From: Candidatus Omnitrophota bacterium
Lineage (GTDB): Bacteria; Omnitrophota; Gorgyraeia; Zapsychrales; JANLHA01
Direction: 5' to 3'
Length of the DNA stretch: 64,000 nt
Assembly: GCA_020632535.1 (NCBI GenBank)
Contig: JACKFJ010000005.1
Location: 200 to 64,199, forward strand
Shown: piece after piece, positions 2,337-23,483 of the stretch
Layout: each line of letters opens with the position of its first letter
Numbering within the stretch: the stretch's first letter is position 1
Program-made: the position numbers and the translations under genes
The notes under the pieces: generated by a model
The model's input: only the letters and a program-made list of their open reading frames with translations
Database searches by the model: none
What the model was told of the DNA's origin: nothing

Positions 2337-4690
2337 AACCTTCTCGCTCGTCGATAACGAATAAGAATTCCTAAAAATACTGCTGTACCAATAAAGCTAA
2401 CAACCAAACCCAGATGCCACAAAACCGGTCGATACTCTAGTTCAATCGTATGTTCACCTTTATCCAATGCAAAACCCATAAAGATGTTATTTGCAGGGAA
2501 CAATGGCTGAGCGCGATCATCGACGCGCAACTGCCAACCTGCCTGGTACATTTCCGGAACGAAAACATAAACATCACTCGCAGCGCTAACATCAAACGTC
2601 AAATAATCTTTACGCTTTTCCAGAAAATTACTATATTTCGTCTTATTCAAATTCGCAACATTTTCTAAAGCGCGCGGCGAAAATCGATTCCAATCTTCAG
2701 CAGTCATATAAATTGTGCCGTGATATGGACGATCAAATGAATCAATTAATTCACGGAATGAAACAACTTGAATTTGATCACTAAACTTAACACGTTCAAC
2801 AGGCAAATCTCGCCTCCAAACATCAAGATTAGTCCCGTCGACAACCCTTGAGAATCCCGGCCAAGGTAAATTCATACCTTTGGCCACCGTCGTAAACTCA
2901 ACAGGGAAATACGTTGTTAAGCTCGCGGGAGTCGCGCCAAAATCGTATTTGTAATCAATCGTGCTTTTGGACCAATTTGTTTTTTTATGAAAAGCATTCA
3001 TGAAATTATTAAACCTCTTCGGTGGAATATTCAAAAATCCATTCACGCCATCCACATCAAACAGCAAATCATAATTATGCATCATTGTTTCGTATTGAAA
3101 CGCCTGACCTTGCGGCTCAACGTAAGCCATATAATAATGACGTTTCATACTCTGATAATACGCATGCTCCGGAGTGTCAAAATAAAATTGGGCGCGCGCG
3201 GTACGCTGACCTTTTTCACCCCAAACATAGCTTGTATGCAACAATTGACCACCCAGAAAAATCAAACACGCTAATAAAAGAGAATTTTGTAATGTTTTAT
3301 TCTTATGCCACGGAATCACGAAAAGCATCAAAGCCATCATCGCGACATACCTTTGGTCAAAGGCAATTTGGACACTGCCAAAATCATGATGAGGAAAAAA
3401 TTGATTAAGCCAAAGAGGTGAAAATAAATAAATTTCCGCTAAAATCAATAAAATAAATAAATAGTTTTTTCTATTTTTGCTCTCCGCAGGTTTCAACCCC
3501 AGAACCACAACGAGAAAAACAACAAACAACATGTCAATCATAAATCCGCAATAACCAAACGTAATCATCCGCAGAGGATTAAATAGTTTTGCGCAAAACG
3601 GAAAAACATTACTTAACAATTCCGCAATCGGCGGAACACAAAAGAAAAACAAAGTAGACATAGCCACATTAACAAATGGCCGATGTTGAGCGCCCCATTG
3701 CCGCATTGCCTTCCAATCGACAATAAGTTTTCCAACAGCAAAAAACATTAAAGCCCAAAATGCCCGCACGCCCTGATCGCCATTAGTAAATATAGAAAGA
3801 TGCAACAATTTCGCAATCGACATTTGCCCTTTGTAATCATTACGAAAAAACGGAAAATTATTAATCGGATATTCGCCGAGCGTGCGAATGGATTCCAAGA
3901 AGGTAAATGACAAAGTCGGCAAAAGTTGTACGCCAGCAATCGTGACGGCAAAAAAGAGAAACACAAAACAGCTCGTAACGCAAAGCACTATCTTGCGAAT
4001 CCATGATTTTTCCTCGACAAATAAAATCGCGTCCATCCCAATGAGAATCATGCTCCAAATGATCATTTGTGCATACTGCCCCGCGCCGCCACCAATAAAA
4101 ATCAGCGACATAAGAGCACCCATCACCGCACTACGCAAATAGAGATGCCGTTTAAATAATTTGGCATAACAATACAACATTAATGGAAAGACTGCGCATG
4201 CCCAAAGAAAGAATGGATGATGTAATATCCCTACATCGCGAGTAAAAACAAACCCCATATATGCCAATGCGCCATAACACGTCAGCGCAAAACTTAATCG
4301 CAAACTTCGCCGCAAGAGCAAACCCATCGCAAACAAACCAATAAAATACGGTTCAATCAGTTTAAAAACATAGAAATGGTCATAACTAATCCATTTGGCA
4401 ATAATATTACCCGGTGACCACAACGGATAAAACCCAGAAGAATACAAGCAAAACCCCCCACCAATTGAACGAGTCCAAAACGCAAATTCTCCAGTTTTCC
4501 ACTGGCGGGCAATATCAATCAAAATACCCCAATAATGATCACTCAATTCATTCAATGAAGTACCAAAAGGCGGCGATGCGGAAATATGCCATAAATAGCA
4601 ACAGCCCACCAATGCGAGAACAAACAAAATGCCAAAGTCTAAATATTTATGGAAAATTTTTCTCATATTGAAACGCATTTTAACATACAA
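2333..4690 (-). CDS. YfhO-like polytopic membrane protein (candidate GT-C glycosyltransferase)
   Basis: 785 aa with many TM helices in the first ~500 aa, a large soluble domain and a single C-terminal TM. This overall architecture matches YfhO-family proteins. The start among several N-terminal Met codons is uncertain. Confidence 0.6.
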   Translation of the reverse strand: MYVKMRFNMRKIFHKYLDFGILFVLALVGCCYLWHISASPPFGTSLNELSDHYWGILIDIARQWKTGEFAFWTRSIGGGFCLYSSGFYPLWSPGNIIAKWISYDHFYVFKLIEPYFIGLFAMGLLLRRSLRLSFALTCYGALAYMGFVFTRDVGILHHPFFLWACAVFPLMLYCYAKLFKRHLYLRSAVMGALMSLIFIGGGAGQYAQMIIWSMILIGMDAILFVEEKSWIRKIVLCVTSCFVFLFFAVTIAGVQLLPTLSFTFLESIRTLGEYPINNFPFFRNDYKGQMSIAKLLHLSIFTNGDQGVRAFWALMFFAVGKLIVDWKAMRQWGAQHRPFVNVAMSTLFFFCVPPIAELLSNVFPFCAKLFNPLRMITFGYCGFMIDMLFVVFLVVVLGLKPAESKNRKNYLFILLILAEIYLFSPLWLNQFFPHHDFGSVQIAFDQRYVAMMALMLFVIPWHKNKTLQNSLLLACLIFLGGQLLHTSYVWGEKGQRTARAQFYFDTPEHAYYQSMKRHYYMAYVEPQGQAFQYETMMHNYDLLFDVDGVNGFLNIPPKRFNNFMNAFHKKTNWSKSTIDYKYDFGATPASLTTYFPVEFTTVAKGMNLPWPGFSRVVDGTNLDVWRRDLPVERVKFSDQIQVVSFRELIDSFDRPYHGTIYMTAEDWNRFSPRALENVANLNKTKYSNFLEKRKDYLTFDVSAASDVYVFVPEMYQAGWQLRVDDRAQPLFPANNIFMGFALDKGEHTIELEYRPVLWHLGLVVSFIGTAVFLGILIRYRRARRL

Positions 4691-4889: not shown

Positions 4890-5933
4890 ATGACAAACGT
4901 TATAGGAAGAAAATACTTAGTACTCCTCTTTTCCTTGCTTTCTGCCAATCCCAGAGCTTCGGCAGATACCATTGAATTAGCCAACGGCCTGACCCTTAAA
5001 ACAGAGCAAGTCAAAGCTGAAGAAAACCTCAATAGCTTTCAATATGGCCTCGTAAAAGTCAACACCACTTACTCACCAATAAAAAATTTAAAACTCGATA
5101 GTGAAGAAAAATACAAACTTTTGCCTGAATCATTGTTTGTCAGTGATGCTCACGCGTCTCTTACTTCCATTGACGAAAACATTTTCACAGTCGGCCGTCG
5201 CGCCCACGAAGCTTTACGCTCAGCCATTCGCTTTGAGGACGTACGACCTTTCATTTCTAATGATGCCTATCAAAATCTCATTGCCAAACGTAATGAAGGG
5301 TCTAAGGAAATGTTGGTTTTACAATTATTAAGGACATCTATTCCCGAAGAAATTGAAATCATTCAGACAAAAATACAAGGTGATCTTGCGTGGGTCGTGG
5401 CCCGAGGGAAAATGCATGGACAACTCTTCTGGGGAATCTTATCTTTAACGCGCGAAAACGGGGACTGGAAATTAGCAGAAGAAACTTGGTACGGCAACAA
5501 TCAATACCAACCTATCATGGTCAAGAATATGACTAAGGCCAGCGATTTTCTAAAACAAATCAATGACAAACCAGCAAGTGACTTTATCAGTTGGGTTGAT
5601 CAAGCGGGCCAACCGCGAAGCACGCTACCTCTTGAACATGGGCGAATCAAAACTCCCAAAAGATCATTTTGTTTCTTTTTCTTTTATGATCCCGAAAAAA
5701 CAAAAAAAGTTTCTGGTGAAACACCCGTCGCAATCACCCCATCACCCGACATGCACATTGTCTGGCCGACGGGCTTGCGTCATGATCCCAAAGTTTATCA
5801 AGGCGATAACGCAGACGGATTTGATGTTTCAATTGCGGCAGATAAAGATGGCTACTACCCTAATAAAATGAATTTACGCATGCCTCGCGGGAAACCAAAA
5901 GAAGTTTATGTCGGAGTTCTTGTCGCGTTCTAA
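4890..5933 (+). CDS. secreted hypothetical protein
   Basis: 347 aa with an N-terminal signal-like segment (YLVLLFSLLSANPRASA). No recognisable catalytic motif. Followed by a stem-loop at 5965..6009. Confidence 0.6.
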   Translation: MTNVIGRKYLVLLFSLLSANPRASADTIELANGLTLKTEQVKAEENLNSFQYGLVKVNTTYSPIKNLKLDSEEKYKLLPESLFVSDAHASLTSIDENIFTVGRRAHEALRSAIRFEDVRPFISNDAYQNLIAKRNEGSKEMLVLQLLRTSIPEEIEIIQTKIQGDLAWVVARGKMHGQLFWGILSLTRENGDWKLAEETWYGNNQYQPIMVKNMTKASDFLKQINDKPASDFISWVDQAGQPRSTLPLEHGRIKTPKRSFCFFFFYDPEKTKKVSGETPVAITPSPDMHIVWPTGLRHDPKVYQGDNADGFDVSIAADKDGYYPNKMNLRMPRGKPKEVYVGVLVAF

Positions 5934-5964
5934 TATCTTCCATACTCTCCTTATCAACACAATA

Positions 5965-6009
5965 CAAAGAGGACAGCTCCATATGAACACAATGAAACTG
6001 TCCTCTTTG
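5965..6009. terminator. stem-loop between convergent genes (possible bidirectional terminator)
   Basis: Perfect 12-bp inverted repeat CAAAGAGGACAG (5965..5976) / CTGTCCTCTTTG (5998..6009) with a 21-nt loop. It lies between the stops of 4890..5933(+) and 6044..6307(-). The flanking U-runs are weak. Confidence 0.45.
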
Positions 6010-6043
6010 ATCAGACGCATGAGGCATACTTTAACTTCCTCCT

Positions 6044-6307
6044 TTAAAACCGCGAACGGCCTTCGTTAATTTGTTTTGCCTCACTGTCCGCGTCTGTTTT
6101 TCGCCCACGAAAGACTTCGACAAGCAAAGCGCTGATTTCCACCTGCTCGGCGCCAAAACCTTTCGCGTCACGAATAAGTTCCGCACAATCCTCGTAGCGT
6201 TGTGCCAAAAGTGCCTCCTTTAAATAAATCAAAGAAGTCAATTTTAGAACTTCGTTCGAATTTAACTGGCCGTTTTCACGACCTTTGATCGTTAAGTTGT
6301 TTTCCAT
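6044..6307 (-). CDS. hypothetical small protein (87 aa)
   Basis: ATG preceded by AAAGGAGGAG (strong SD). The helix LKEALLAQRYEDCAELIRDA only weakly resembles a UVR motif. No confident family. Confidence 0.5.
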   Translation of the reverse strand: MENNLTIKGRENGQLNSNEVLKLTSLIYLKEALLAQRYEDCAELIRDAKGFGAEQVEISALLVEVFRGRKTDADSEAKQINEGRSRF

Positions 6308-6395
6308 TTTCTCCTCCTTTCTTTTTCATTTTGTCTTCGCGAGAAATATACCTCGCTTAGCATTATTGCGAAGCGGCAAATCATATTCGCGCCGC

Positions 6396-6434
6396 AATAA
6401 AAAAGCCACCGCTCAACTAAAAGAGTGGTGGCTT
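6396..6434 (-). terminator. Rho-independent terminator (minus strand)
   Basis: GC-rich 12-bp stem (6403..6414 / 6423..6434) with one A.C mismatch in the minus-strand RNA and an 8-nt loop. It is followed on the minus strand by TTTTTTATT (6402..6396). Confidence 0.6.
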
Positions 6435-6559
6435 GATATTGCTCTGGAATTTATTTAATTAGTTAATCAAGACACACCGCCTCCGGCACGCTTTCTCCAT
6501 ACTGGAAAAAGGGCGATACAAGAGACATGCATAGTTTGATTAACTGATATCATCATAAT
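6396..6559 (-). ncRNA. candidate small RNA or cis-regulatory leader (~165 nt)
   Basis: Bounded by a predicted sigma70-type promoter (6566..6593) and the terminator at 6396..6434. Only 21- and 13-codon ATG ORFs without SD lie inside. No riboswitch class recognised by eye. Confidence 0.3.
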
Positions 6560-6565
6560 GTTTGA

Positions 6566-6593
6566 AGTTTACCACAAATCTCATGAAAGTCAA
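6566..6593 (-). promoter_or_regulatory. predicted sigma70-type promoter
   Basis: Minus strand reads TTGACT (6593..6588), a 16-nt spacer, then TGG-TAAACT (extended -10, hexamer 6571..6566). Confidence 0.35.
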
Positions 6594-6617
6594 ATTCAGC
6601 AATCGACACAAAATATT

Positions 6618-6637
6618 TACAATTTCACTACAATTTC
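6618..6637 (+). promoter_or_regulatory. tandem direct repeat TACAATTTC x2 upstream of the DUF1302 gene
   Basis: Identical 9-mers at 6618..6626 and 6629..6637 (11-bp phasing), 28 bp upstream of the ATG at 6665. The function is inferred only. Confidence 0.25.
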
Positions 6638-6664
6638 GCGATTATTATTCTAGAATACTTTTAC

Positions 6665-8350
6665 ATGAATTTAACTTTTTCATCCAAACAAAAATTTCTC
6701 CATACCTGCATCATGGTTGCTGTCGGTTTTTTCTTACTCACCACGGATGCCCACGCTTTTCGATTCCAACATAACGAAGTTTCCGGATTTATTGACACAA
6801 CAATATCGTCAGGTGCATCGCTGCGTCTTCAAGAACGCGATCCCGCGTTAATCGGTCGCGCTAACGGCGGAACCGCCTACACTGTTGATGGTGATAATGG
6901 TAATCGTAATTTTTCAAAAGGGACTCTTATCTCAAACACAAATAAAGCGATCAACGACATGGGTCTTTCTTACCAGAACTACAGTGCTTTCGTTCGTCTG
7001 TCTTATTTTTTTGATCCCGTTAATCGCTATAAAAAAGAACTCACTCCGTATCAACGCGAAAACGCTGGCCAAGGATTCGATCTTCTCGACGCATATGTAG
7101 AAGGCAAATTTGAACCTTGGGGTAAAAAACTCAATGTTCGAGTAGGAAAGCAAGTCCTCAATTGGGGCGAAAGTATATTTATCCCCGGCGGTTTAAATTC
7201 TTTAAACTCACTCGATGTTGGGAAATTACAAGTTCCCGGCGCAGAATTTCGCGAAGCCATTGTTCCTAGCCCAATGATATCGGATTCTTTTCAATTGACT
7301 CCACGTCTTAGCCTTTCAAATTATTATATTTTTAAATACGATCGTACAAAGCTCGAAGAATGCGGTACATTTTTTTCGACCACAGATATTGGGTGTGAAG
7401 GCGGAACTGGCAATTCAACCGGTGGCTATGGTCAAGTTGCCGAAGGGACTTCTAGCCAACTGACCCGTCGACTTAAAGATGATCGGCCATCAAATCATGG
7501 ACAATACGGCGCGGCTTTACGCTATTTATCACCTGAATTGAATGATTCAGAATTTGGTATTTATTTTGAAAACTTTCACAATCATGTTCCCGTAGTTTCG
7601 GGCGTTTCGTCCACACCGGGCGCGCAGCCATTTCTTTTCTTCCAATATTTAGAAAACTTGCAAGTCTATGGTTTTACAGCCAGCACAAATGTGGGAAGCG
7701 TCGCCATCCAGGGAGAATATTCTTACCGGCCTGACTATCCATTGCAAATTGAAACAGGTGAAGTTTTTGCCGCGGCACAATACTTTCCTTCAGCTCAAGT
7801 TGCGGCTGCTAAAGCTCCTGGGAATATCATTCGCGGATATCGTAAACTACCCGTCAATCAACTGCAGGCTAGCATGATCAAAGCATTTGGTCATAACAAT
7901 CCATTTAAAGCTCAAGAGTGGGTAGTCGCCGGTGAAGCTGCGGTAATCTACGTCTCACATTTTCCAGATAAACGAGACCTTCGTTTTGACGGGCCAGCAA
8001 CAAATTTAGCGGCCTACAGCGGCGTGGGTTCTCCGGCATTACAAACATCCGGCTGGGCAGATCGCCTGTCTTGGGGATATGTTCTTTCATCCTCTACAAC
8101 GTATCAAAAAGTCATTAAAAATATTGATTTGACACCCCGCGTAGCGTTCAGTCATAATGTCGAAGGAACCACTCCTTCACCATTAAGTCAATTTGTTGCT
8201 GACCGCATGAGCGCAACAATAGGGATTAATGTGCTTTACCTCAATCAATGGTCTGCTGAAATCAGTTATACAAACTACTTCGGTGCTTCGTTTCGAAACG
8301 CTCTTAATGACAGAGATTTCGCCAGCCTTATTGTCAAACATTGGTTTTAA
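6665..8350 (+). CDS. DUF1302 family outer-membrane protein
   Basis: 561 aa with a signal peptide (FFLLTTDAHA). Beta-barrel-like alternating sequence ends in an aromatic residue (VKHWF). Contains VDGDNGNRNFSKGTLISN and GFIDTT motifs that I associate with DUF1302. Confidence 0.75.
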   Translation: MNLTFSSKQKFLHTCIMVAVGFFLLTTDAHAFRFQHNEVSGFIDTTISSGASLRLQERDPALIGRANGGTAYTVDGDNGNRNFSKGTLISNTNKAINDMGLSYQNYSAFVRLSYFFDPVNRYKKELTPYQRENAGQGFDLLDAYVEGKFEPWGKKLNVRVGKQVLNWGESIFIPGGLNSLNSLDVGKLQVPGAEFREAIVPSPMISDSFQLTPRLSLSNYYIFKYDRTKLEECGTFFSTTDIGCEGGTGNSTGGYGQVAEGTSSQLTRRLKDDRPSNHGQYGAALRYLSPELNDSEFGIYFENFHNHVPVVSGVSSTPGAQPFLFFQYLENLQVYGFTASTNVGSVAIQGEYSYRPDYPLQIETGEVFAAAQYFPSAQVAAAKAPGNIIRGYRKLPVNQLQASMIKAFGHNNPFKAQEWVVAGEAAVIYVSHFPDKRDLRFDGPATNLAAYSGVGSPALQTSGWADRLSWGYVLSSSTTYQKVIKNIDLTPRVAFSHNVEGTTPSPLSQFVADRMSATIGINVLYLNQWSAEISYTNYFGASFRNALNDRDFASLIVKHWF

Positions 8351-8366
8351 AATAAAGGAAATGTAA

Positions 8367-9368
8367 ATGGAAACGGTTTTTTTGATCGGCGGACGTTCAT
8401 TTATAGGCGGCCATGTCTGCCGAGTACTTATTCAGCGCGGATACAATGTTTTGCTACACTCGACGAGTACCCCAAAATTTGAAAATCTAAAAGATATTCT
8501 TCCTCACCCACAAGTAACCACCGTCGTATGCCCATATGAAAATACTCAACTGCTCTCGGAACTAATGGCGAAAGCGAAATTCTTGATTTTCTCTGCTGTC
8601 CCTCCGGGGAAACAAACATTAGGACAAAAGCAAGCCAAAGGCCGCGACTTTAGTAATCTTAACAATATCCTAGAAGTTCTCTCGGCACACCCAATTGAAA
8701 AATCTGTTTTTATTTCCACATGTGGAACCATCGGATCCATCGACATCGGATCAGCTGATGAAAACTGCATTGCTAAAAAAGGACAAGGCTGGGCCGGGCT
8801 GGCTTTTAAATTTGAAATCGAAAAGCTGGTCATGGATTACTATAAAAAAGGTCTTAAAATTGTTATTGTCAATCCGACGATGTTTATCGGTGAGCACGAT
8901 ACAAAACCTTCAACAGGCGAATTCTTTCGCTTTCTGGACAAGTTTCCATTCATAATTCTTAAGGGCGAGAAAATAAATATTATTGATGTTGCGGATGCGG
9001 CTCTCGGGACAGTCTTAGCTTTAGAAAAAGGCCGAGTTGGAGAACGCTATATTTTAGGTGGGAGAAATATTTTACATGAGGAACTCATCGCTCGTATTAA
9101 AAAATGCGGCGGGAAAAAAATGCCGAAATTTGCTATCCCCCTGAGCTTATCTATTCTCACGGCAGTTACTTCCGAGCTCATCAATTTAATTCTGAAACAA
9201 GACAAGCCCATGGTGCCTCTGATTGGTATTGAATTACAAACTCACGGTTCCCAACATTATTCAACCGCAAAAGCTGAGCGTGAACTTGGATATGTTCCGG
9301 GAGATGCGTGGGCTGCGGTCGATCGTGCATATGCATGGTATAAAGATCACGGAATGTTATCAAAATAA
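8367..9368 (+). CDS. NAD-dependent epimerase/dehydratase family SDR (HpnA / dihydroflavonol-reductase-like)
   Basis: Rossmann motif IGGRSFIGGHV at the N-terminus. The C-terminal YSTAKAERELGYVP resembles hopanoid-associated sugar epimerase-type SDRs (from memory). Confidence 0.8.
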   Translation: METVFLIGGRSFIGGHVCRVLIQRGYNVLLHSTSTPKFENLKDILPHPQVTTVVCPYENTQLLSELMAKAKFLIFSAVPPGKQTLGQKQAKGRDFSNLNNILEVLSAHPIEKSVFISTCGTIGSIDIGSADENCIAKKGQGWAGLAFKFEIEKLVMDYYKKGLKIVIVNPTMFIGEHDTKPSTGEFFRFLDKFPFIILKGEKINIIDVADAALGTVLALEKGRVGERYILGGRNILHEELIARIKKCGGKKMPKFAIPLSLSILTAVTSELINLILKQDKPMVPLIGIELQTHGSQHYSTAKAERELGYVPGDAWAAVDRAYAWYKDHGMLSK

Positions 9369-9395
9369 AACAGATGTTTTAACGGAGGAACTTCA

Positions 9396-10721
9396 GTGAA
9401 AAAATGTACCCTTATGTTAATGGCCGCCGTGCTTGTATTTTCTCTTCCCGTTTTTGCTAGTGAAAAATTAACTCCAGCTATGACAAACTTTGGGGCTGAA
9501 AAAGCCGGTAACAGTGACGGCACAATCCCGGAGTGGAATGGCGGAATCACAACCCCACCACAGTCCTACAAAGCAAATGGCTTTCACCCCGATCCTTTTG
9601 CCAACGATAAACCGCTATTTACTATTACCGCATCCAATTGGACACAATACAAAGACAAACTATCGGCCGCGCATCAAATGATGTTTGAAACATATCCGGA
9701 TTATCAAATCCCAGTTTACCCCACCCGTCGCAGCGCTTCTACTCCTGATTTTGTTTATGAAGCGCTCAAGTTTAATGCCGAAAATGCGCAATTGACATCT
9801 GATGGCAATGATATCAGCGGTGGCAGAATCACAAGCCCTTTTCCCGTCCCAACAAATGGCCTTGAAGCAATTTGGAATCATTTGCTTCGATACCGCGGCC
9901 AGTCACTTGTACGTAAAGAAGAAGCTGTTGCAGTCGCATCAAAAAATCATTTTATTGTCGCGTCTGGATACAGTTCGATTTTGTTTCCATATAGTTTGCC
10001 GGGAAGTTCATTCGACTCACCGGAGGACACACTCGCATACTATAAACAGAAATTATTTTCTCCGCCGCGTTTAGCTGGAACCTTACTTTTAGTTCATGAA
10101 ATGCTCGATAAAGTAAAAGAAAAAAGACGTTCTTGGCTATATAACCCCGGACAACGCCGAGTCAGCCGCGCGCCATTTATCAATTATGATACTTACGCAC
10201 AGTCAAGCGAAGGCTTGCGCACTTACGATCAATTTGACATGTTTAACGGAGCCACCGACCGCTATAATTGGACACTCGAAGGCAAACAAGAAATATTTGT
10301 TCCCTACAATGCTTACCGCCTTGCGAATAAAAAACTAAACAGAAAAGATATTTTGGACGCTCATTTTCTTAACTCAAATTTTACTCGTTATGAATTGCAT
10401 CGTGTTTGGAAAGTTAGCGCTGTTCTCAAAGAGAACACAAATCATATTTATGCTCGACGAGTATTTTATCTCGATGAGGACAGCTGGCAAATTCTTATCT
10501 GTGAACAATACGATGGCCGTGGAGACCTGTGGCGTTTTTCAGAAGCTCATGTCATTAATTATTATGAAATTCCTGTCCTGCTCTCAACAGCCGATATGCA
10601 TTACGATTTGAAATCCGGTCAATACCTCATGGAGTGGCAAATCGAACCTATAAAGTTTAATACAAACTTAAAAGTTGATGACTTTACTCCCGAAACACTC
10701 AGACAGGAAGGTATTCGCTAG
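9396..10721 (+). CDS. DUF1329 family periplasmic protein (LolA-like, lipoprotein-sorting-like)
   Basis: GTG start preceded by GGAGG. Signal peptide LVFSLPVFAS. Its size (441 aa) and its partnership with DUF1302, BNR and RND genes are typical of DUF1329. Confidence 0.75.
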   Translation: MKKCTLMLMAAVLVFSLPVFASEKLTPAMTNFGAEKAGNSDGTIPEWNGGITTPPQSYKANGFHPDPFANDKPLFTITASNWTQYKDKLSAAHQMMFETYPDYQIPVYPTRRSASTPDFVYEALKFNAENAQLTSDGNDISGGRITSPFPVPTNGLEAIWNHLLRYRGQSLVRKEEAVAVASKNHFIVASGYSSILFPYSLPGSSFDSPEDTLAYYKQKLFSPPRLAGTLLLVHEMLDKVKEKRRSWLYNPGQRRVSRAPFINYDTYAQSSEGLRTYDQFDMFNGATDRYNWTLEGKQEIFVPYNAYRLANKKLNRKDILDAHFLNSNFTRYELHRVWKVSAVLKENTNHIYARRVFYLDEDSWQILICEQYDGRGDLWRFSEAHVINYYEIPVLLSTADMHYDLKSGQYLMEWQIEPIKFNTNLKVDDFTPETLRQEGIR

Positions 10722-10958
10722 GAATATCGAAACATCCTATTTATGAGCCTTGCCCAAACCCATAAAAAGATTTTCTTTGCATTAAACCAAAGATTTCTCC
10801 GCCAAACTCTCCCCCGGAAACGGGAAATGGATCTTGTCATGATGGATCGCGAATAGGTCGATCAATATAAGAAAATGGTGACAACGGCGGATTAGCTGTG
10901 TTGTAGATATTATTATCAATAAAAAGGATAACTCTCTAAGCGGCAAGTAAATATCTTA

Positions 10959-11903
10959 ATGCGGCAACTATCTACATACATCTCTTCCCTCGGGGTCGTC
11001 ATATTCTTGGCGGCAACATTTCTTTTCTGGGAACCTTCTTTCAAGCATCCTCCTAAAATTGATGAGTCAAATCGCGGCGCTTTCTTTGATATTACAAAAT
11101 ATAAAGAAATTGTCATCGCCGTCGGTGAACATGGACGAATCTTATACTCTTGCGATGAAGGTAAAAGTTGGATATCGGCAATTAGCCCGACCAATTTATC
11201 TCTGACAAGTATTTTTCTTCTCAATGACAATCTCGGCTGGATCACAGGATATGACGGCATAATACTCAAAACGGAAAATGGCGGTTTGACATGGACATCT
11301 GTCAAGAATCCCTCAACCACAGAACAACCGCTTTTTGCAATATGGTTTAAAAATGAAAATGTCGGCTTAGCTGTTGGAGCTGACAGCATGGTTTATCGTA
11401 CGAATGATGGTGGGGCACATTGGCAATCGCAAAAACTTAACATGCAAGCACATTTATATTCAATATCGGAAACGGCTGATGGAACAGTTTGGATCAGCGG
11501 CGAAAATCAAGCGCTTTATTTCAGCAAAGATTTAGGAAAAACATGGAAAAAGTTAAAACCTCCCTTTCTAACTTCATTTTTTGGTTCAATTACACTGTCT
11601 GATCAACTACTGACTTTCGGATTACGCGGCCGCGTTTGCACATGGAAAACTTCAGGTTTGGTTGAAAGCAAAACAGAAAGCGACGAAAGCCTTTCGGCTG
11701 GCACGCATCTTGAAGATGGGCGAATTGTCCTAGCTGGTCAACGAGGCAAAATCTTAGTCGGTCAAAAAGATGGTAAATTATTTCATTCTTTAAAAACGCC
11801 TATTAAGGAAGATATTGCTTCTCTCATTGAAACATCGAATTCTCTAATTATAGTCGGAAATTCTGGTATTTACCGTATACTTAAGTCAGAGTTGGGGTTA
11901 TAA
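10959..11903 (+). CDS. BNR/Asp-box beta-propeller protein (Ycf48-like)
   Basis: Four Asp-box motifs (SCDEGKSW, TENGGLTW, TNDGGAHW, SKDLGKTW) after an N-terminal hydrophobic segment. Confidence 0.75.
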   Translation: MRQLSTYISSLGVVIFLAATFLFWEPSFKHPPKIDESNRGAFFDITKYKEIVIAVGEHGRILYSCDEGKSWISAISPTNLSLTSIFLLNDNLGWITGYDGIILKTENGGLTWTSVKNPSTTEQPLFAIWFKNENVGLAVGADSMVYRTNDGGAHWQSQKLNMQAHLYSISETADGTVWISGENQALYFSKDLGKTWKKLKPPFLTSFFGSITLSDQLLTFGLRGRVCTWKTSGLVESKTESDESLSAGTHLEDGRIVLAGQRGKILVGQKDGKLFHSLKTPIKEDIASLIETSNSLIIVGNSGIYRILKSELGL

Positions 11904-11904
11904 A

Positions 11905-13968
11905 ATGTTTAAGCAATACATTCTTCCGCCATTATTACTCGTCGCAGGTCTTACGCTTCTAAGCTTTAAGCCAATCAATATTATTCCAGAATCTGCCCCA
12001 TTGATATCATCACGAGAAATTCAAAATAATTTCATACAATACAAGGAATTTGATCAACGCAATCAAATTTCAGTTATCTTAACGAATACACAGGGTGATA
12101 TTTTTAATCCTACTTTTTTTAAAACGCTGAAAGATTTGGCAGAAGAAATCTTTTATCTACCGGGTGTTGATCGCACCAACATACTTTCATTATTTACAAA
12201 TAATTTGAGCTTCAGAGAAGTCATTGAAGACGGTTTTGCCGGCAAAATGATAATTCCCGAGAATTTTTCAAATTCACAAGCGGAATTTGACGCGGTTAAA
12301 AACAATCTATCCAAATCTCTTTACGTCGGAAAACTTGTCTCTTATGACTATCGCAGCGCTCTGATTTCTGTCCCCTTCTATCGTGCCGAACAAGGCCTGG
12401 AATTGACCCGTCGAATTGAACAACTTTTGCCAAGCAGCGGGAATATTCAATCTTCGCTTCTGGGCATGACACCTTTTATGATCGAAATTAAGAAACAACT
12501 CTCACATTCCATGTTTGCCCTTATCTTCTCATGGTTCATCAGCGTTATTCTTTTTAGTCTAATAACACGCAAAGCTTCCAGTATCTTTTGCCTAATAATT
12601 GCGCCATTGTTGACCATTACACTACAATGCGTCCCCTTTGGCATTTTTAATTTCCCCATCCACCCTTATGTTTTTCCGGTAATCATAACAACTTTTATTT
12701 TATCCTTTACAGATATCGCATGGATCACCTTAAACACGACGAAAATTGATACCCGCGTACCCATATGGTTAACATTACTACCGACCATGAGTCTTTGTTT
12801 TCTGGGTTCGGATTGGGCTTATCAAATTCTCTATCTTGCCATCAGCGGCACTGTTTCCTTATTTATTGTACGGTATTTCTTTTTAAATTCGATTCCCACA
12901 ACTCTAAAAGGATTCAAAATTTCAATAATTTCTTCTGGATTTAAACTATCCCGTGTAATCCGAAAAATAATAATGTTATCCCTATTAATTGCGGGACTGA
13001 CACTTGCGTCCAAAATTGTCATTGGTAATCTCGGAGCTGGATCTTCCATGCTAAGAAATGATAGCCCTTATCTTGAAAAACAACTGTCAATGACCAAAAA
13101 CTTCGCGTTTGCACTCGACTCAATATTAGTTCTAGCAATTTCTCCCGAGAAAGGTTGTACCGATCCAGCCACCGTTAGTGTCGCGGAAGAATTTCACTGG
13201 TCTTTGTCAAATATTCCCGGCGTCCGTACAATATGGAGCCTTGGGAATACTGTAAAGAAAATAAATGCCTTCTATCATGAAAATTATCTCAAGTGGATCA
13301 CTGTCCCACGAGAAAAAGCAACATTGATCGCAAGTACAAGCGTCCTTGATTCACGCAGTGGCTTACTCGATCAATCGGGATTAATTTTCCCAATAACCAT
13401 ATTTCTCGAGAATCATAATCCACAAGTTCTTACGCAAATTTATGAGGGAATTAAAAGTTTTGAATCACCAGACAATCTATTATCCTTTAAAATTGTGGGA
13501 GGAACTGCAGGTACCGAGGCAATTATCAATGAAATGATAAAAGCGTCTTGGAAAATCATTTTACTGATACTTCTCCTTACTTTTTTAGTGATCACACGTT
13601 TTTTCTTTCACGCGCATACCACAATCAATTTATGTTTTCTGTATATAACAATCTTATCGTTGACGCTGGGACTCAGTGTCGTACTTGGCATCAATTTATA
13701 TATTGATACAATCGCAGCGCTCGTTTTATCGTCATGCGTATGCTTTTATTTCTTATGGACTTTGCAAAACATGATCGCGTCACGAAAAAAACTGTCGCAC
13801 ATTCTACTTCTTTTATGCGTGTTAATTTCAGGAGGGCTTTTTTCACAAGTAAATTTTATTTTTCGAACTGCAGGGATCGCTGAATGTATGCTGATTATAA
13901 CTTGGTTGGTAGGATTTAACTTGTTTCCGGTAAAAGAAGATCTTCGGGCGAGACACGCAAAGACTTAA
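11905..13968 (+). CDS. RND superfamily (MMPL-type) transporter
   Basis: 687 aa with two blocks of multiple TM helices, each preceded by a soluble loop. The ATG lies 1 nt after the BNR gene stop. Confidence 0.7.
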   Translation: MFKQYILPPLLLVAGLTLLSFKPINIIPESAPLISSREIQNNFIQYKEFDQRNQISVILTNTQGDIFNPTFFKTLKDLAEEIFYLPGVDRTNILSLFTNNLSFREVIEDGFAGKMIIPENFSNSQAEFDAVKNNLSKSLYVGKLVSYDYRSALISVPFYRAEQGLELTRRIEQLLPSSGNIQSSLLGMTPFMIEIKKQLSHSMFALIFSWFISVILFSLITRKASSIFCLIIAPLLTITLQCVPFGIFNFPIHPYVFPVIITTFILSFTDIAWITLNTTKIDTRVPIWLTLLPTMSLCFLGSDWAYQILYLAISGTVSLFIVRYFFLNSIPTTLKGFKISIISSGFKLSRVIRKIIMLSLLIAGLTLASKIVIGNLGAGSSMLRNDSPYLEKQLSMTKNFAFALDSILVLAISPEKGCTDPATVSVAEEFHWSLSNIPGVRTIWSLGNTVKKINAFYHENYLKWITVPREKATLIASTSVLDSRSGLLDQSGLIFPITIFLENHNPQVLTQIYEGIKSFESPDNLLSFKIVGGTAGTEAIINEMIKASWKIILLILLLTFLVITRFFFHAHTTINLCFLYITILSLTLGLSVVLGINLYIDTIAALVLSSCVCFYFLWTLQNMIASRKKLSHILLLLCVLISGGLFSQVNFIFRTAGIAECMLIITWLVGFNLFPVKEDLRARHAKT

Positions 13969-14971
13969 CCGCGCACTCATCGGCATAACCGACTCGCAAC
14001 AATGTTAAAATTTCCTGAGGCTTAATCCCCAGATGATATTCAACATTTCTTTCCACTTGATCAATTGTATCCCTTTCTTTCTTCGAAAAGAAATCGCGGC
14101 TGATTTTGGTAATATCGACGCTTGACGCGACGATATGAGAACTTAATCCATCCTTATTTAAAAGATTGATAATTTTCTGAATATCCATCCAATCCCGAAC
14201 AAGAACTTCCGCAGAAGTATCTGATTCCTTAAACGCAATAAGCAGTGCTGTTTCGCGCAGTAATTTTCTATGCGATTTTTCAGCCACCTTCTGAGCCAGA
14301 ATACTTTGACCGACCGTCCTCCTAAAAATCTCATTTCGACTAAATCGTAAAAATTGCTGCGAAAAAGATGGGATTTCTAGAACCCGTAAATCTAATCCAC
14401 GACGGCTTTTCTCTGCTTCTTCTGGGGTATAACATAACTGATGAATAATTTCCTTGTTCAGCCCTGAATTTCCCATACGAATTCTCTCTAGCGCGGCACA
14501 ATTATTGATAATAGCCTCACTACTGGTAACATTCAAAACCGCACGGGTTTCACCACCAAAGAGATTCCGAATCTTTTCGAAAACACTAGGTGACAAATAA
14601 TCATCCCGATGTTTTTTACGGTTCGTGTAACGAGACATCACATGCGCAATGTCATACTGAGGAAGAGTTGAAGACTTTTGAAATCTTACTTCACACAAAG
14701 CTTGGTATAAATCAGTTTCACGTGTTTTCAAACGATATGTCATTTCATATTGAAAGTGCTTCGCTCCCTCAGAGAGATTTTGTAATAAAGGCCCTAGCGA
14801 ATAAAAAGGGACTTCTTTAAAATTTTCAAGAAAACCACCCCTGCTATATATTTCGAAAATATAAAGAACATCATTTTTAAATTGAAATTGCCATGGTTGC
14901 CCATTGTAAGGCGATGCCGCCTTAAGGCCAACTCTTAGAATTTCTATTATGTCTTTACGATCCATATGCAA
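13916..14971 (-). CDS. nitroreductase-family protein (two-lobed, Acg-like)
   Basis: The N-terminal LKAASPYNGQPWQF motif is typical of nitroreductase-fold proteins, and the ~350 aa length suggests the duplicated-domain type. The likely real start is ATG at 14965. The 3' end overlaps the RND gene by 53 bp. Confidence 0.55.
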   Translation of the reverse strand: MHMDRKDIIEILRVGLKAASPYNGQPWQFQFKNDVLYIFEIYSRGGFLENFKEVPFYSLGPLLQNLSEGAKHFQYEMTYRLKTRETDLYQALCEVRFQKSSTLPQYDIAHVMSRYTNRKKHRDDYLSPSVFEKIRNLFGGETRAVLNVTSSEAIINNCAALERIRMGNSGLNKEIIHQLCYTPEEAEKSRRGLDLRVLEIPSFSQQFLRFSRNEIFRRTVGQSILAQKVAEKSHRKLLRETALLIAFKESDTSAEVLVRDWMDIQKIINLLNKDGLSSHIVASSVDITKISRDFFSKKERDTIDQVERNVEYHLGIKPQEILTLLRVGYADECAVKSLRVSPEDLLLPETS

Positions 14972-17929
14972 TCATTTAAAAACTTTATCGAGAATGCCCC
15001 CGATGATTTGTGAACCAGAAGATTCCTGCCCTTGTGATGGTGTCTCCTGACCTTCCTCCTGAGCTTTTGAATCAACTTTAATTCCTAAAGCCTTATCTAA
15101 AATATTACCAAGCTCCTTCTTTGCTCCGTGACGAACTGCATTCTTGCCAAGATCTAAAGCAGATTGTGTCACAGAAATTACAGGCATCTGATTTCCCTGT
15201 CCGCTGACATGAACCGGCAAACTAACATTATTATCTTTATCATACAAATACTGCCACTCTTGCGAACTCTGCCCCATAATTTCTGAAAGTTCCGATGTGA
15301 TTATAAATGCGCCGTCCAAATCATACTTTTGATCTAAAGTTGCATCACATTTTCCATTAAAAACAAATTCATCTGCCTCCACAGCGATCGGATTCAATTC
15401 AATATTACTATTTGTAAGCACATAAGTCCCTGAAATAGAATTGATTTGCGTATCAGCATCCGCTAATTTCAATTTATATTTTTCCGGAAGCTTAGCTTCG
15501 ACACGCGCCGCGAAATCCGGGAAAAACGTAATTTTGTCAAAAACCGTTTTAAGCACATTGAGATCCTTTAACCTTGCTTTCGTAACTTCAAACTTCCCAT
15601 CACTGTTAATCGCATTTAAATCCGTGCCCTGTCCTTTTGCGCGAATCGTGGCGGAAACTACCCCAGCAATTTTTACAGGGGCATCGTTCTGGTTGAGAAT
15701 CTCATCCAAATCTAAGCCCGTGATTTCTGTTGTAAAATCAAAAGCTTGGCTCGTGAGATAATCACTGACTCCCACTTTGGCTAAAACTTGTCCTTGACCA
15801 ATCTTTAGTTTTAAATCATCCGCGATCAACTGATTTTCGGTTACCCTAAAATTTGTGGTCATTCCGCTGACTGGAACAGCTAATTCTTTAAGTTTAACTT
15901 CCCAATCTTTTAAAGTAATTTCACTGTCCAAACTCGTCAATCCCTGTACTCCCGCAAAAAGCTCCTTAATATCAATGTCAAGTTGACCCTTAAGAGTTTC
16001 AGGCAAACTAACATCTTTTAGACTAACAATTTTTGTTTTAATCTGTGGCAAAGCAATTTTCGCTAATTCAACTTTAATGGCTGTATCGTTCACCACGACT
16101 TTCTGCGACGGAAGATCCAACTGTACTTTACCGTCAACTTTAATATTTGGTTGATCACTTTCATAACCAAGTAACGCGGAAATAGCAAAAGATTCGGTCA
16201 ATGAGAATTTCTTAAGATCAATCTTGATCGCATTCGCTTCAAAAGAGACTCCAGGAACAACATCCACCATAACGATTTTTCCATTTTGCCATTGTAAATC
16301 AACGTCCATAATCCCCAATCCGTTGGGGGAAACATTTAACTCACGAATTTGTACTTGGAATTTTCCACCAAGAGATTGAGGAAATGGCGTGCCATCTGGA
16401 ACCAAACCTGATACTTTAAAAGGATCAAGGGCAAAGCTGTTCAAATTAATCCCTGTCATCCCATTCTTAACTGTCACTGTCTGTGTTTTTTCATCAAACG
16501 AAACCGCGCCATCAAAAGTAATATTCTGAATTTCACTCAAATAAGATGTTTTTAAGGAAACAGCAAATTGCTTGCCTAAAGAAAAATTGTTAATTTCCAA
16601 ATCTGTCTTATTAATAGCAAACTCGATCCCAGGCATTATATTGTTGAACAAAAACGATCCGCCCTTGACTTTGGCATCTAATAAAATAGACTGCAATCCA
16701 CTTGTAGAGATAACAGTATCTTTAATGGTCGCTTGAACTTTGCCTGACAATTTATCAGGCAAAAGAACATCCTTCAAAAGGGCAACTTGTGATTTTATAT
16801 ATTGAATCGGCCACATTGACAGATCTGTCACAAATTGACCTTCGGTCAAATGGGCAGAAAGAACCTTGTGGTCAACGGCAACGTTAGCTTTAAAATCAAT
16901 ATTCGTTTCGTCTTGATAAAGCGCGGCTTTAACACTCATCTGCGCAACTGCTGAACTATCCGAAGAAAGATTTTCTAAATCCACATCAAGTTTTCGAACG
17001 TCTAAAGAAATACCAGAAACAATATTCGGTGCGATAATCTTGACATTATTAAGATAAAACGCCCCTCCCAATTTAGTAATACCTTTATCAGAAAGCGTTG
17101 CCTCTTTAATCTTTAACTCAACTTCCCCATCCAAAACCTGAGGCAATGGAATACCGGCAAGCATCGACCAATTTTTCATTCGCTCCAAAGGCAAGTGCCC
17201 CAAATCTAAAACCACATTCATATCTGAAAGTTTTAACTCAGTAATGTTTTGCCGCAATTGTGTTTTTCCCTGCAAATGAAAATTCTGTTCTGCCGTCAAT
17301 ATGGCCGCATCAAGCACAATATCAAAAGAATTAACAAAAGAAAAATGCTGAATATCCACCGTTATCTTGCTTATATCCAACTGCAATTGAGGAGACACCG
17401 ATTGATCAATCAAACTCACATCTGCATTCTCAATCTTAAAAGAATTGATCAGAATCGCGGGCAATACCATCGCGGCCGGTGGTTTGCCTGTTGCAGCAGA
17501 CTTATTCACAACCGGTCCTAATGTTTGAATATTTAAAATTCCAGACGCATTGCGAATAATAGCAATGCGAGGAGCAACAATTTGCACGCTTGGAACTGTG
17601 ATTTGGCGGGAAAGGATAAACGCGAGAATATCGACCCCAGCGTTAACTTCTTTAATATGAACAAACGAATTTGTCCCAAAATCAGGATTTTCAGCGATGA
17701 CAAAATCTTCAATATGAAGTCGAATACCTTTTTCTAATGAAACAGTCAAATCAATGGCATTCAAATCAACATTACGACCTAGCGCGTTGCTAGCAGCCGC
17801 GACTATTTGGGGTCGATACTTCTGAATATCAATATTCTTTAAGAAAATAATCCCACCGATAAAAGCTAGGATCATTAAAATCAGAATAACCGATATAACA
17901 ATACCAATAATTTGGAAAAACTTTTTCAT
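14972..17929 (-). CDS. AsmA family protein
   Basis: 985 aa with a single N-terminal TM (IIGIVISVILILMILAFIGGIIF), then a long beta-rich repetitive periplasmic region as in AsmA/TamB-like proteins. Confidence 0.7.
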   Translation of the reverse strand: MKKFFQIIGIVISVILILMILAFIGGIIFLKNIDIQKYRPQIVAAASNALGRNVDLNAIDLTVSLEKGIRLHIEDFVIAENPDFGTNSFVHIKEVNAGVDILAFILSRQITVPSVQIVAPRIAIIRNASGILNIQTLGPVVNKSAATGKPPAAMVLPAILINSFKIENADVSLIDQSVSPQLQLDISKITVDIQHFSFVNSFDIVLDAAILTAEQNFHLQGKTQLRQNITELKLSDMNVVLDLGHLPLERMKNWSMLAGIPLPQVLDGEVELKIKEATLSDKGITKLGGAFYLNNVKIIAPNIVSGISLDVRKLDVDLENLSSDSSAVAQMSVKAALYQDETNIDFKANVAVDHKVLSAHLTEGQFVTDLSMWPIQYIKSQVALLKDVLLPDKLSGKVQATIKDTVISTSGLQSILLDAKVKGGSFLFNNIMPGIEFAINKTDLEINNFSLGKQFAVSLKTSYLSEIQNITFDGAVSFDEKTQTVTVKNGMTGINLNSFALDPFKVSGLVPDGTPFPQSLGGKFQVQIRELNVSPNGLGIMDVDLQWQNGKIVMVDVVPGVSFEANAIKIDLKKFSLTESFAISALLGYESDQPNIKVDGKVQLDLPSQKVVVNDTAIKVELAKIALPQIKTKIVSLKDVSLPETLKGQLDIDIKELFAGVQGLTSLDSEITLKDWEVKLKELAVPVSGMTTNFRVTENQLIADDLKLKIGQGQVLAKVGVSDYLTSQAFDFTTEITGLDLDEILNQNDAPVKIAGVVSATIRAKGQGTDLNAINSDGKFEVTKARLKDLNVLKTVFDKITFFPDFAARVEAKLPEKYKLKLADADTQINSISGTYVLTNSNIELNPIAVEADEFVFNGKCDATLDQKYDLDGAFIITSELSEIMGQSSQEWQYLYDKDNNVSLPVHVSGQGNQMPVISVTQSALDLGKNAVRHGAKKELGNILDKALGIKVDSKAQEEGQETPSQGQESSGSQIIGGILDKVFK

Positions 17930-22933: not shown

Positions 22934-22997
22934 CCCTTCTCCTTTGCTTTTTATATTATACGATTTTTTATACTTAACCCAATCAACCGAATAATAT

Positions 22998-23013
22998 GTA
23001 TATACACATATTA
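22998..23013. promoter_or_regulatory. candidate MarR operator box 1 (GTATATACACATATTA)
   Basis: 16-bp sequence identical to 23518..23533, containing the palindrome GTATATAC. It lies 12 bp after the marR stop and about 40 bp upstream of a TATAAT (22960..22955) that precedes copA. Confidence 0.4.
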
Positions 23014-23024
23014 GTTAAAAAAAT

Positions 23025-23483
23025 TTACCTCTTTTGCATCACATTTAGAATCCCATTCAAATCTGTAATAAAATCAGCCATACGCTTTACTCCCACTGCT
23101 TTAAGGACTTCTTGATGTTTCTCTTGCCAAATGCGCGATGCTTTTTGTAAAATCTTCCCACCCTTTTCAGTTAACATGATGGCTTTTTCCCTGCGATCCG
23201 CACAATCACAAGGTTTGATTAAACCATCTTTCTTTAAGGGAAGCAAATTTCGACTGACCGTTGTACGATCCGTAGACACCGCCTCTGCTAACTCATTAAT
23301 ATTAGCAGAATGCAATTCTTGAATATTTGACAAAATCATGATTTGGCTTGGTGTATATCCAAGACTTCGAAGAGCCTCATCGTAGATCTGTGTTATCATT
23401 CGTGAAGCTTTTCGAATATTAAAACACAAACACTGATTGTCCTCGACCAACCTTTTTATTTTATCCTTTTTGTCATACAACAT
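23025..23483 (-). CDS. MarR family transcriptional regulator
   Basis: Winged-HTH region (ILSNIQELHSANINELAEAVSTDRTTVSRNLLPLKKDGLI). ATG at 23483 is preferred because of the AAGGTGG SD. The longest ORF starts at GTG 23510. Confidence 0.85.
   Translation of the reverse strand: MLYDKKDKIKRLVEDNQCLCFNIRKASRMITQIYDEALRSLGYTPSQIMILSNIQELHSANINELAEAVSTDRTTVSRNLLPLKKDGLIKPCDCADRREKAIMLTEKGGKILQKASRIWQEKHQEVLKAVGVKRMADFITDLNGILNVMQKR

Follow-up and report, generated by a model that had tools for sequence, protein, structure and literature searches.

The window analyzed here is a stretch of 64,000 nt from Candidatus Omnitrophota bacterium, to whose full length all positions refer. Within it, five plus-strand open reading frames (ORFs), separated in order by 16, 27, 237 and 1 nt, encode the DUF1302, DUF1329, BNR and resistance-nodulation-division (RND) proteins of a known envelope quartet together with a short-chain dehydrogenase/reductase (SDR), and a sixth gene, resembling those of flavin-dependent oxidases (FDO), converges on them from the minus strand. 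An earlier sequence-only reading of this DNA had placed the five genes and their gaps exactly, and had interpreted them as a trans-envelope shuttle for a lipid or other hydrophobic molecule, linking the SDR and the RND protein to the hopanoid proteins HpnA and HpnN. The quartet itself is already known; what is new is the Omnitrophota version, merged with lipid-modifying genes, which is rare. The genes and features of the cluster are as follows.

6665-8350, plus strand: DUF1302 outer-membrane beta-barrel, AmeA-like (Pfam PF06980, 491 bits, residues 17-559)
8367-9368, plus strand: atypical extended SDR, predicted cytoplasmic (Epimerase PF01370, 48 bits)
9396-10721, plus strand: DUF1329 periplasmic LolA-like carrier, AmeB-like (Pfam PF07044, 437 bits; LolA_like, 38.8 bits)
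10722-10958, plus strand: putative deletion scar (blastn and tblastn against a related locus, L009)
10959-11903, plus strand: BNR/Asp-box beta-propeller, Ycf48-related, AmeC-like (PSII_BNR, 66 bits; Sortilin-Vps10, 48 bits)
11905-13968, plus strand: divergent, short (687-aa) MMPL/HAE3-type RND-fold inner-membrane protein, AmeD-like (phmmer, AlphaFold, Foldseek)
13916-14971, minus strand: Acg/Rv1355c-like FDO homologue of the nitroreductase superfamily, predicted cytoplasmic (NCBIfam Acg, 65.5 bits)

Components of the cluster

Profile searches uphold the domains proposed for the DUF1302, DUF1329, BNR and SDR proteins, each of which scores above its cut-off, the first three far above (23.2 bits for Pfam DUF1302 and 20.9 bits for Epimerase PF01370), whereas the RND assignment falls short of the Pfam MMPL and HAE3 cut-offs and is carried by other lines of evidence described below. 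The DUF1302 protein, whose family is described as an 18-stranded barrel (PMC13499233), begins with a signal peptide ending ...TDAHA/FRF. A signal peptide (...PVFA/SEK) with no lipobox is also found in the DUF1329 protein, whose match to LolA_like agrees with the LolA-like nature anticipated for it and whose homologues across many phyla are 46-52% identical. The BNR protein carries a hydrophobic anchor or signal at its N-terminus and matches NCBIfam Ycf48 at 69.8 bits, under the cut-off. With these domains in place, the proposed trans-envelope unit of outer-membrane barrel, LolA-like carrier, propeller and RND protein stands.

The convergent gene encodes a protein that aligns with almost the whole of the NCBIfam Acg model (E = 5.6e-18; residues 11-345 to model positions 2-318 of 319), at a score below the cut-off of 199 bits, and that also matches the Rv1355c family over its full length; searching solved structures by sequence returned no match for it. 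FDOs are nitroreductase-like flavin-dependent oxidases that desaturate N-acyl amino acids (PMC10404671, PMC12856293). The 3' ends of the Acg-like and RND genes overlap by 53 nt (13916-13968).

For comparison we drew on about eight distinct Omnitrophota-type loci, all metagenomic and three of them labelled Omnitrophota, which are denoted below by L numbers. L009 is syntenic with the window from a YfhO-like gene to past an AsmA-like gene, at 87-89% DNA identity. Measured against it, every gene of the cluster is under purifying selection, with ratios of nonsynonymous to synonymous substitution (dN/dS) of 0.02-0.17: 0.019 for the SDR, the lowest in the cluster (98% identical), 0.050 for DUF1302 (94% identical), 0.146 for the RND-like gene and 0.173 for the BNR gene.

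Origin of the 237-bp spacer

The gap between the DUF1329 and BNR genes had been singled out as a place where a terminator and an independent promoter might split the cluster into unrelated units. A consensus scan of the 237-bp spacer found no terminator and no plus-strand promoter match, and its RNA fold is unremarkable (z = -1.25). At the corresponding place L009 carries two additional genes, which encode a 281-aa UbiE-type methyltransferase and a 359-aa Acg/Rv1355c-like protein. Two blastn blocks relate the loci, one aligning window positions 10601-10921 with L009 6976-7298 (89.8%) and the other aligning 10921-11099 with L009 9018-9195 (88%); because they abut at 10921, L009 7299-9017 (1,719 bp) is missing from the window. 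Traces of both genes persist. A methyltransferase remnant starts with an ATG at 10743, is interrupted by an in-frame TAG at 10854-10856 and keeps its similarity to 10874 (methyltransferase residues 1-44 at 10743-10874, 91% identical by tblastn), and the last 17 or so codons of the Acg/FDO-like gene are kept at 10900-10950. The deletion junction falls in an imperfect 16-nt direct repeat at 10906-10921 (microhomology).

The same pair of genes occurs in L005 and is fused in L008 and L114, so the state of the window is read as a loss. By these alignments the spacer appears to be the scar of a 1.7-kb gene loss and not the boundary of a unit. A regulatory boundary at this position was considered and rejected, given the missing terminator and promoter, the plain fold and the gene remnants.

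An SDR clade lacking the catalytic tyrosine

The SDR had been called HpnA-like. HpnA (TIGR03466) is its best NCBIfam model, but the score of 167.4 bits is far from the cut-off of 367.65 and identity to annotated HpnA proteins is about 30%, so that the resemblance is a distant one; the model for the sterol demethylase SdmB gives a weak match (66 bits). Database searches place the protein in a compact clade with a sharp boundary (about 30 clusters, 44-70% identity), and the scores of full-length matches drop from 327 to 142 bits between this clade and ordinary HpnA-like proteins (about 30% identity). Two motifs set the clade apart. In place of the TGxxGxxG of extended SDRs its members have GGRSFxGGH (GGRSFIGGH in the window), and in place of YxxxK the window protein reads G-L-A-F-K. 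The catalytic Tyr is present in none of 25 aligned members and the Lys in 24; at the Tyr position the subclade of envelope clusters has G, A or N and the other subclade H, with the HpnA-like outgroup showing YKRTK and TGATGFLG. The AlphaFold model (predicted local distance difference test, pLDDT, 90.6) has an ordinary extended-SDR (Rossmann) fold, for which the best matches are Gox2253 and PA4631 (PDB 3wj7, 2x4g; template modeling score 0.81 against 3wj7), followed by sugar epimerases and cinnamoyl-CoA reductases.

Judged by its motifs and its dN/dS, the SDR appears atypical, strongly constrained and not decaying. Some Tyr-less SDRs are active reductases, and this one may be active too; with the catalytic Tyr missing, sugar epimerase or dehydratase chemistry cannot be assumed. 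The suggestion that the SDR marks a chemically modified cargo survives in part: the enzymes clustered with the transporter point to a tailored lipid.

The same evidence bears on the idea of a hopanoid-like cargo, whose headgroup would be modified by an HpnA-type epimerase and which would be exported by an HpnN-type transporter. This idea draws on the rank of HpnA among named models for a protein of extended-SDR fold, on the SdmB match, and on the HAE3/MMPL lipid-transporter fold of the RND protein, among whose structural matches is HpnN. Every test applied to it speaks against it. Both proteins lie far under the family cut-offs, the clade boundary at 327 to 142 bits separates the SDR from HpnA-like proteins, the YxxxK motif with its catalytic Tyr is absent, and the nearest relatives of the RND protein are AmeD-like and not HpnN. 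The 35 window ORFs scanned include no squalene-hopene cyclase and no hpn or other hopanoid gene, and HpnN works without a DUF1302/DUF1329/BNR set (PMC6394551). We regard a hopanoid pathway as largely refuted and the most improbable of the explanations considered here.

Whether the SDR gene was a sporadic insertion, conserved in no relative, had also been raised. The gene sits between those for DUF1302 and DUF1329 in four loci (the window, L009, L001 and L005), among which the RND protein retains 85% (L009), 40% (L005) and 33% (L001) identity to that of the window; in L116 it follows DUF1302, and the contig stops at the SDR. Within its lineage, then, the gene is not a sporadic insertion.

A metagenome scan with the profile of the SDR clade added only three full-length loci, and two of these duplicated loci already in the set. 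The subclade with HxxxK at the active site occupies a different setting (L004 9272-13144; L007 10001-13840; L115 764-5049; L003 10001-13037). In L004, L007 and L115, the last from a Rhodopila metagenome-assembled genome (MAG), genes for a FeeM/TIGR03694-type N-acyltransferase and for a ThiF-nitroreductase fusion flank or adjoin the SDR, and in L003 it precedes separate nitroreductase-like and ThiF genes (ThiF and FDO only). By this gene content the HxxxK SDRs are regular members of acyltransferase, SDR and ThiF/FDO clusters that resemble the OxzAB/TrzAS pathways of oxazolone lipids. The three papers on those lipids that were searched (10.1101/2020.06.11.147165, PMC10404671, PMC12856293) mention neither an SDR partner nor a methyltransferase, and we flag the Tyr-less clade as a candidate third component of oxazolone-type lipid clusters. 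Across both settings, the more widely shared partner of the SDR appears to be the Acg/FDO-type flavin oxidase and not the quartet.

A divergent RND-fold protein

The 687-aa product of the last plus-strand gene has no Pfam match at E<=0.01, missing Pfam MMPL, and matches NCBIfam HAE3 (TIGR00921) over residues 355-608 only, at 28.6 bits against a cut-off of 351.9; a sequence search of solved structures returned nothing. With phmmer it retrieves MMPL proteins of 770-830 aa (E ~1e-52, 25-28% identity over 83-88% of the length). Its AlphaFold model, built from 63 sequences (pLDDT 85.9, predicted template modeling score 0.84), contains 12 transmembrane (TM) helices and two periplasmic domains, and Foldseek aligns it with MmpL3/4/5, HpnN and NPC1 at template modeling scores of 0.6-0.69 (probability 1.0), with NPC1L1 and Patched also among the matches. 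Since phmmer, AlphaFold and Foldseek agree despite the missing Pfam hit, we take the gene for an RND gene, and on similarity and predicted fold its product is a true MMPL/HAE3 homologue. Its closest sequence relatives are AmeD-like MMPL proteins from DUF1302/DUF1329 clusters.

Departures from these relatives are concentrated in the membrane domain. The 'SH' of TM4, an acidic residue (E/D) in TM6, the 'GVDY' of TM10 and the 'QAD' of TM12 are nearly invariant in 57 canonical relatives. All eight Omnitrophota-type RND sequences have GVDY deleted, and the TM4, TM6 and TM12 residues are not kept; further deletions of 8, 12, 15 and 20 residues shorten the membrane domain, while periplasmic motifs such as PGVDR are retained. 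The acidic residues that remain are only partly conserved (D270 in 5 of 7 sequences, E660 in 5 of 8). The RND-like protein is also the fastest-evolving of the cluster, with 33% identity to its L001 counterpart against 57-67% for its neighbors. We infer from these sequences that proton coupling has been lost or rewired, and the protein may offer a natural example of an RND fold that keeps its periplasmic domains and sheds the conserved intramembrane polar network.

Such losses, taken with a Tyr-less SDR and a 1.7-kb deletion that removed two genes and left a remnant with a premature stop, could also be read as the signs of a cluster on its way to pseudogenisation. The remaining ORFs are nevertheless intact and under purifying selection, as the dN/dS of the SDR and RND genes attests; the seemingly degenerate features are common to all clade members over a range of 33-85% identity and are therefore old and stable; and the SDR and RND AlphaFold models are both confident. 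Decay of the cluster was rejected on the dN/dS data and is, in our judgment, very unlikely.

Dispersal of the cluster and its variable enzymes

The DUF1302, DUF1329, BNR, divergent RND and convergent Acg-like genes recur in L001, L005, L008 and L009, and L010, whose contig begins inside DUF1329, has the same arrangement from that gene onward. In all six loci where the end is visible (the window, L001, L005, L008, L009 and L010) the RND and Acg-like genes overlap convergently by 44-53 nt. An overlap of this kind conserved so deeply, down to 33% identity in the RND protein, is unusual and may reflect coupled expression.

Around this core the enzymes vary. A GT4 (PIGA-like) glycosyltransferase/methyltransferase is found in the clusters of L005 and L116, and L005 has in addition PIG-L, EamA and a second, ordinary epimerase; the L001 cluster includes a GT2 glycosyltransferase of the polyprenyl-phosphate-sugar type. 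In L114 a PilZ-FeeM N-acyl-amino-acid synthase (FeeM, 123 bits) stands beside DUF1329 and DUF1302, along with a methyltransferase-FDO fusion and another FDO, which has 39% identity to the FDO domain of the L004 fusion. The Acg-like orthologue of that locus directly follows the SDR, both on the strand opposite DUF1302/DUF1329; no BNR or RND gene was seen, and the 724-aa and 824-aa proteins encoded there have no similarity to the divergent RND protein or to AsmA. By this gene content the Omnitrophota-type cluster seems to behave as a biosynthetic gene cluster of variable content built around a transporter.

Two of these loci contain unusual fusions. The PilZ domain fused to FeeM (L114 13-1170) is of the type that serves as a receptor for cyclic di-GMP, which suggests second-messenger control of lipid synthesis. 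In L001 (7648-9987; also in L002 and L091) the GT2, residues 1-210 of a 779-aa ORF, runs in frame into the DUF1302 signal peptide and barrel; this could reflect a genuine fusion, a start inside the ORF or an error in the sequence, and it would be odd, topologically, for an outer-membrane barrel to carry a cytoplasmic enzyme.

To place these clusters more widely, a DUF1329 profile was run against one genome per species and retrieved 588 relatives. The best 80 of the 588, from which phyla were read, include sequences from Verrucomicrobiota, Krumholzibacteriota, Entotheonella, Binatia, Nitrospirota, Holophagae, Desulfuromonadales and many Proteobacteria, and the quartet occurs in Verrucomicrobiota, Nitrospirota, Acidobacteriota, Krumholzibacteriota and others. 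Its description as mostly proteobacterial accordingly needs qualifying: many Proteobacteria do have it, but so do several further phyla and the present Omnitrophota host, a MAG whose 100%-identical database proteins carry the label Candidatus Omnitrophica. In 78 clusters from other phyla no gene separates DUF1302 from DUF1329, the largest possible gap being 79 nt, and within 10 kb of them there is no homologue of the SDR clade, the methyltransferase or the Acg-like/FDO proteins. Among some 85 clusters examined, those of the Omnitrophota type are the only ones with biosynthetic or tailoring enzymes embedded in the transporter operon; in this lineage, as far as gene order can tell, the quartet is interleaved with predicted cytoplasmic lipid-tailoring genes.

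Interleaving need not mean a common function. The SDR and Acg/FDO genes, with or without the methyltransferase, could form a small-molecule pathway of their own that rearrangement has brought among the genes of an unrelated transporter. In favor of this, the SDR is paired with FDO genes at transporter-free loci, L114 has its SDR and Acg-like genes on the other strand, L008 has no SDR, and the window has tolerated the loss of its methyltransferase and second FDO. Chance adjacency accounts less well for an interleaving that persists across deep divergence, with the position of the SDR kept while RND identity drops to 33%, for the 3' overlap of the Acg-like and RND genes in six of six loci, for gaps of 16-27 nt that imply co-transcription, or for enzymes that are absent from 78 canonical clusters and present in every Omnitrophota-type cluster. 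We consider the adjacency of independent modules, the second rival to the explanation that we favor below, to be rather improbable.

Comparison with known systems

The quartet had been described as having no resolved biochemistry, a view that published work has overtaken (PMC6394551; 10.1101/072470; 10.1101/2020.07.04.188060; PMC10866462; PMC13499233). DUF1302, DUF1329, BNR and RND genes are co-fit in Shewanella, Kangiella and Pseudomonas, and export of a cell-wall component was proposed (Price et al., 10.1101/072470); the quartets are Sama_1588-1591, Psest_1122/1123 with 1923/1924, and PP_0765/0766 with PP_2018/2019 (10.1101/072470; 10.1101/2020.07.04.188060). Deletion of AmeABCD in Castellaniella defragrans lowers monoterpene tolerance and increases Nile Red accumulation, and the system was described as a tetrapartite HAE3 RND system whose AmeD belongs to a distinct HAE3 lineage (PMC6394551). 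P. putida needs its homologues to grow on Tween 20 and butyl stearate (10.1101/2020.07.04.188060), and substrate transport has been proposed for the canonical Pseudomonas system (PMC10866462). In AlphaFold-Multimer models of Pseudomonas proteins, with reported ipTM values above 0.7, DUF1329 binds either the barrel or BNR plus RND (PMC10866462, PMC13499233).

The window shares with AmeABCD the same four families in the same order (DUF1302, DUF1329, BNR/COG4447, MMPL/HAE3 RND), with predicted localizations that agree, and its DUF1329 is about 50% identical to homologues from other phyla. It differs in its Omnitrophota host; in an RND protein that is about 100 aa shorter (687 versus roughly 780-810 aa), 19-25% identical, outside Pfam MMPL and devoid of the invariant TM4, TM6, TM10 and TM12 polar residues; and in the embedding of SDR, FDO, methyltransferase and glycosyltransferase genes, seen in 0 of 78 canonical clusters.

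A second comparison concerns the enzymes. OxzAB of Pseudoalteromonas rubra and TyzABC/TrzAS of M. tuberculosis combine an N-acyltransferase, an FDO desaturase and a ThiF cyclase to make N-acyl oxazolone lipids (10.1101/2020.06.11.147165; PMC10404671; PMC12856293), and the M. tuberculosis tyz cluster adjoins mmpL9 (PMC10404671). The Acg/Rv1355c-like genes of the window probably fall, by a below-cut-off score, in the same FDO subgroup; L114 has a FeeM acyltransferase and an FDO beside DUF1302/DUF1329; and acyltransferase, SDR and ThiF/FDO clusters are the other genomic home of the SDR clade. Unlike those pathways, the window has no ThiF cyclase or acyltransferase, and its FDO homologues score under curated cut-offs.

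The best structural matches of the RND protein, MmpL3, MmpL4, MmpL5 and NPC1, share its 12 TM helices and two periplasmic (luminal) domains and carry lipid cargoes. Sequence identity to them is 10-14%, the Asp-Tyr pairs of MmpL3-type TM4 and TM10 are not conserved, and the partners differ, being DUF1329, BNR and DUF1302 here and MmpS/AcpM or NPC2 for MmpL and NPC1.

The main rival to an export function is that the same parts run in reverse. The barrel would admit hydrophobic or amphiphilic molecules of environmental or host origin, the carrier would hand them to the RND-fold protein in the manner of NPC2 and NPC1, and the oxidase, methyltransferase and SDR would process what is imported. The need for the P. 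putida homologues on Tween 20 and butyl stearate (10.1101/2020.07.04.188060) and the substrate transport proposed for Pseudomonas (PMC10866462) are in keeping with uptake, as are an RND protein that has lost the canonical residues of the proton relay, as an unpowered receiver might, and the presence of NPC1, NPC1L1 and Patched among the fold matches. The enzymes in the clusters, though, are anabolic in type (FeeM, GT2, GT4 with PIG-L, methyltransferases) and not hydrolases or beta-oxidation enzymes, and the AmeABCD data point to export (PMC6394551). Uptake strikes us as unlikely, if still the strongest competitor.

A proposed lipid-tailoring shuttle

The explanation that we favor, to which we give roughly even chances of being correct, is that the cluster encodes an Omnitrophota-lineage shuttle of AmeABCD type, which works together with enzymes that tailor an amphiphilic lipid of the cell's own making and moves this lipid outward. 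The lipid, for which an N-acyl amino acid origin and/or glycosylation is most plausible, would be made or tailored at the cytoplasmic face, where Acg/FDO-type flavin oxidases, a UbiE-type methyltransferase (lost in this genome) and the Tyr-less SDR would act on it. The RND-fold protein would then take it up and hand it to DUF1329, the carrier, for delivery to or through the DUF1302 barrel; the BNR propeller would serve as a partner in docking or assembly. The functional coupling of enzymes to transporter, the class of cargo and the outward direction are what we infer in this scheme.

Several observations weigh against it. The window contains no acyltransferase or ThiF gene in 64 kb (tblastn with the L003, L004, L007 and L114 proteins), and its cluster, which also has no glycosyltransferase, is an incomplete biosynthetic set cut further by the deletion. 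One MAG labelled Omnitrophota (L008) carries the cluster but no SDR in it, and in L006 the SDR stands on its own; the SDR itself is Tyr-less with a variant glycine motif. The Omnitrophota-type RND proteins have no invariant intramembrane acidic residue, so that active export is not assured, and the phenotypes seen in P. putida for the canonical system are as compatible with uptake as with export. Omnitrophota-type systems are known from genes alone, in about eight distinct loci of which three carry the Omnitrophota label.

A bolder version of the proposed shuttle, which we hold to be doubtful, would make the cluster a self-contained island that makes and delivers a new envelope lipid, either a desaturated, methylated N-acyl-amino-acid lipid or a glycolipid. 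In that case the RND protein, devoid of a proton relay, might serve as a passive extraction platform for the LolA-like carrier, and the Tyr-less SDR might assist the flavin oxidase by handling lipid in a non-redox role.

The quartet occurs in many phyla and has phenotypes in several model bacteria. Should this bolder version prove correct, clusters of this type would reveal the cargo class of a widespread DUF1302/DUF1329 system, the subject of a co-fitness study posted in 2016; the embedded flavin oxidases, methyltransferases, glycosyltransferases, FeeM and SDR clade provide a concrete, testable lead to that cargo class.

Flanking genes and a candidate leader RNA

Three genes beside the cluster may be associated with it or occupy its flanks.

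14972-17929, minus strand: AsmA-like large envelope protein, 985 aa, a possible associate outside the core (T2SSN, 40 bits; AsmA NF008091, 24.6 bits)
4890-5933, plus strand: 347-aa secreted protein, a possible accessory periplasmic component (signal peptide; conserved position upstream of the cluster)
2333-4690, minus strand: YfhO-like GT-C membrane protein, on the other flank of the cluster in the window and L009

On the minus strand, the AsmA-like gene immediately precedes the Acg-like gene, and it has the same place in L008 and L009, where its product is annotated as PF05170 AsmA; it is absent from L001 and L005. The 347-aa protein, found at the same position in L009 (96% identical) and L008 (58%), has no family match in Pfam/NCBIfam-type profile scans. 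It was considered as the missing acyltransferase and rejected, having a signal peptide and no similarity to the L114 FeeM. AsmA-like and YfhO-like proteins belong to families that handle envelope lipids or glycans.

A conserved, structured 5' leader lies at 6392-6555 on the minus strand, upstream of an 87-aa ORF at 6044-6307 (minus). An imperfect hairpin of about 85 nt is followed, after some 30 nt, by a clear intrinsic terminator (GCCACCACUC...GAGCGGUGGC, then UUUUUUAUU) that stands about 90 nt ahead of the start codon of the small ORF. The RNA fold has z = -4.83, and the hairpin keeps about 80% identity in the distant L006, a locus with diverging flanks and only 48% identity in the ORF. The leader has no Rfam match at E<=1, an Rfam scan over 5900-11000 returned only a chance miRNA-like match (E = 0.18), and a covariance-model search of 21 sources found no copies past the three used to build the model. 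We regard it as a candidate riboswitch or attenuator that points away from the promoter region of DUF1302, with three copies and minimal covariation in its favor.

The remainder of the window is devoted to copper resistance, alpha-glucan metabolism and transport. A copper-resistance block at 20594-26230 (P-type ATPase, multicopper oxidase, TolC-like OEP) and an alpha-glucan/GlgE-pathway block at 36770-51132 (GlgE, TreS-Mak-like, branching enzyme, GH57) appear to be ordinary neighbors.

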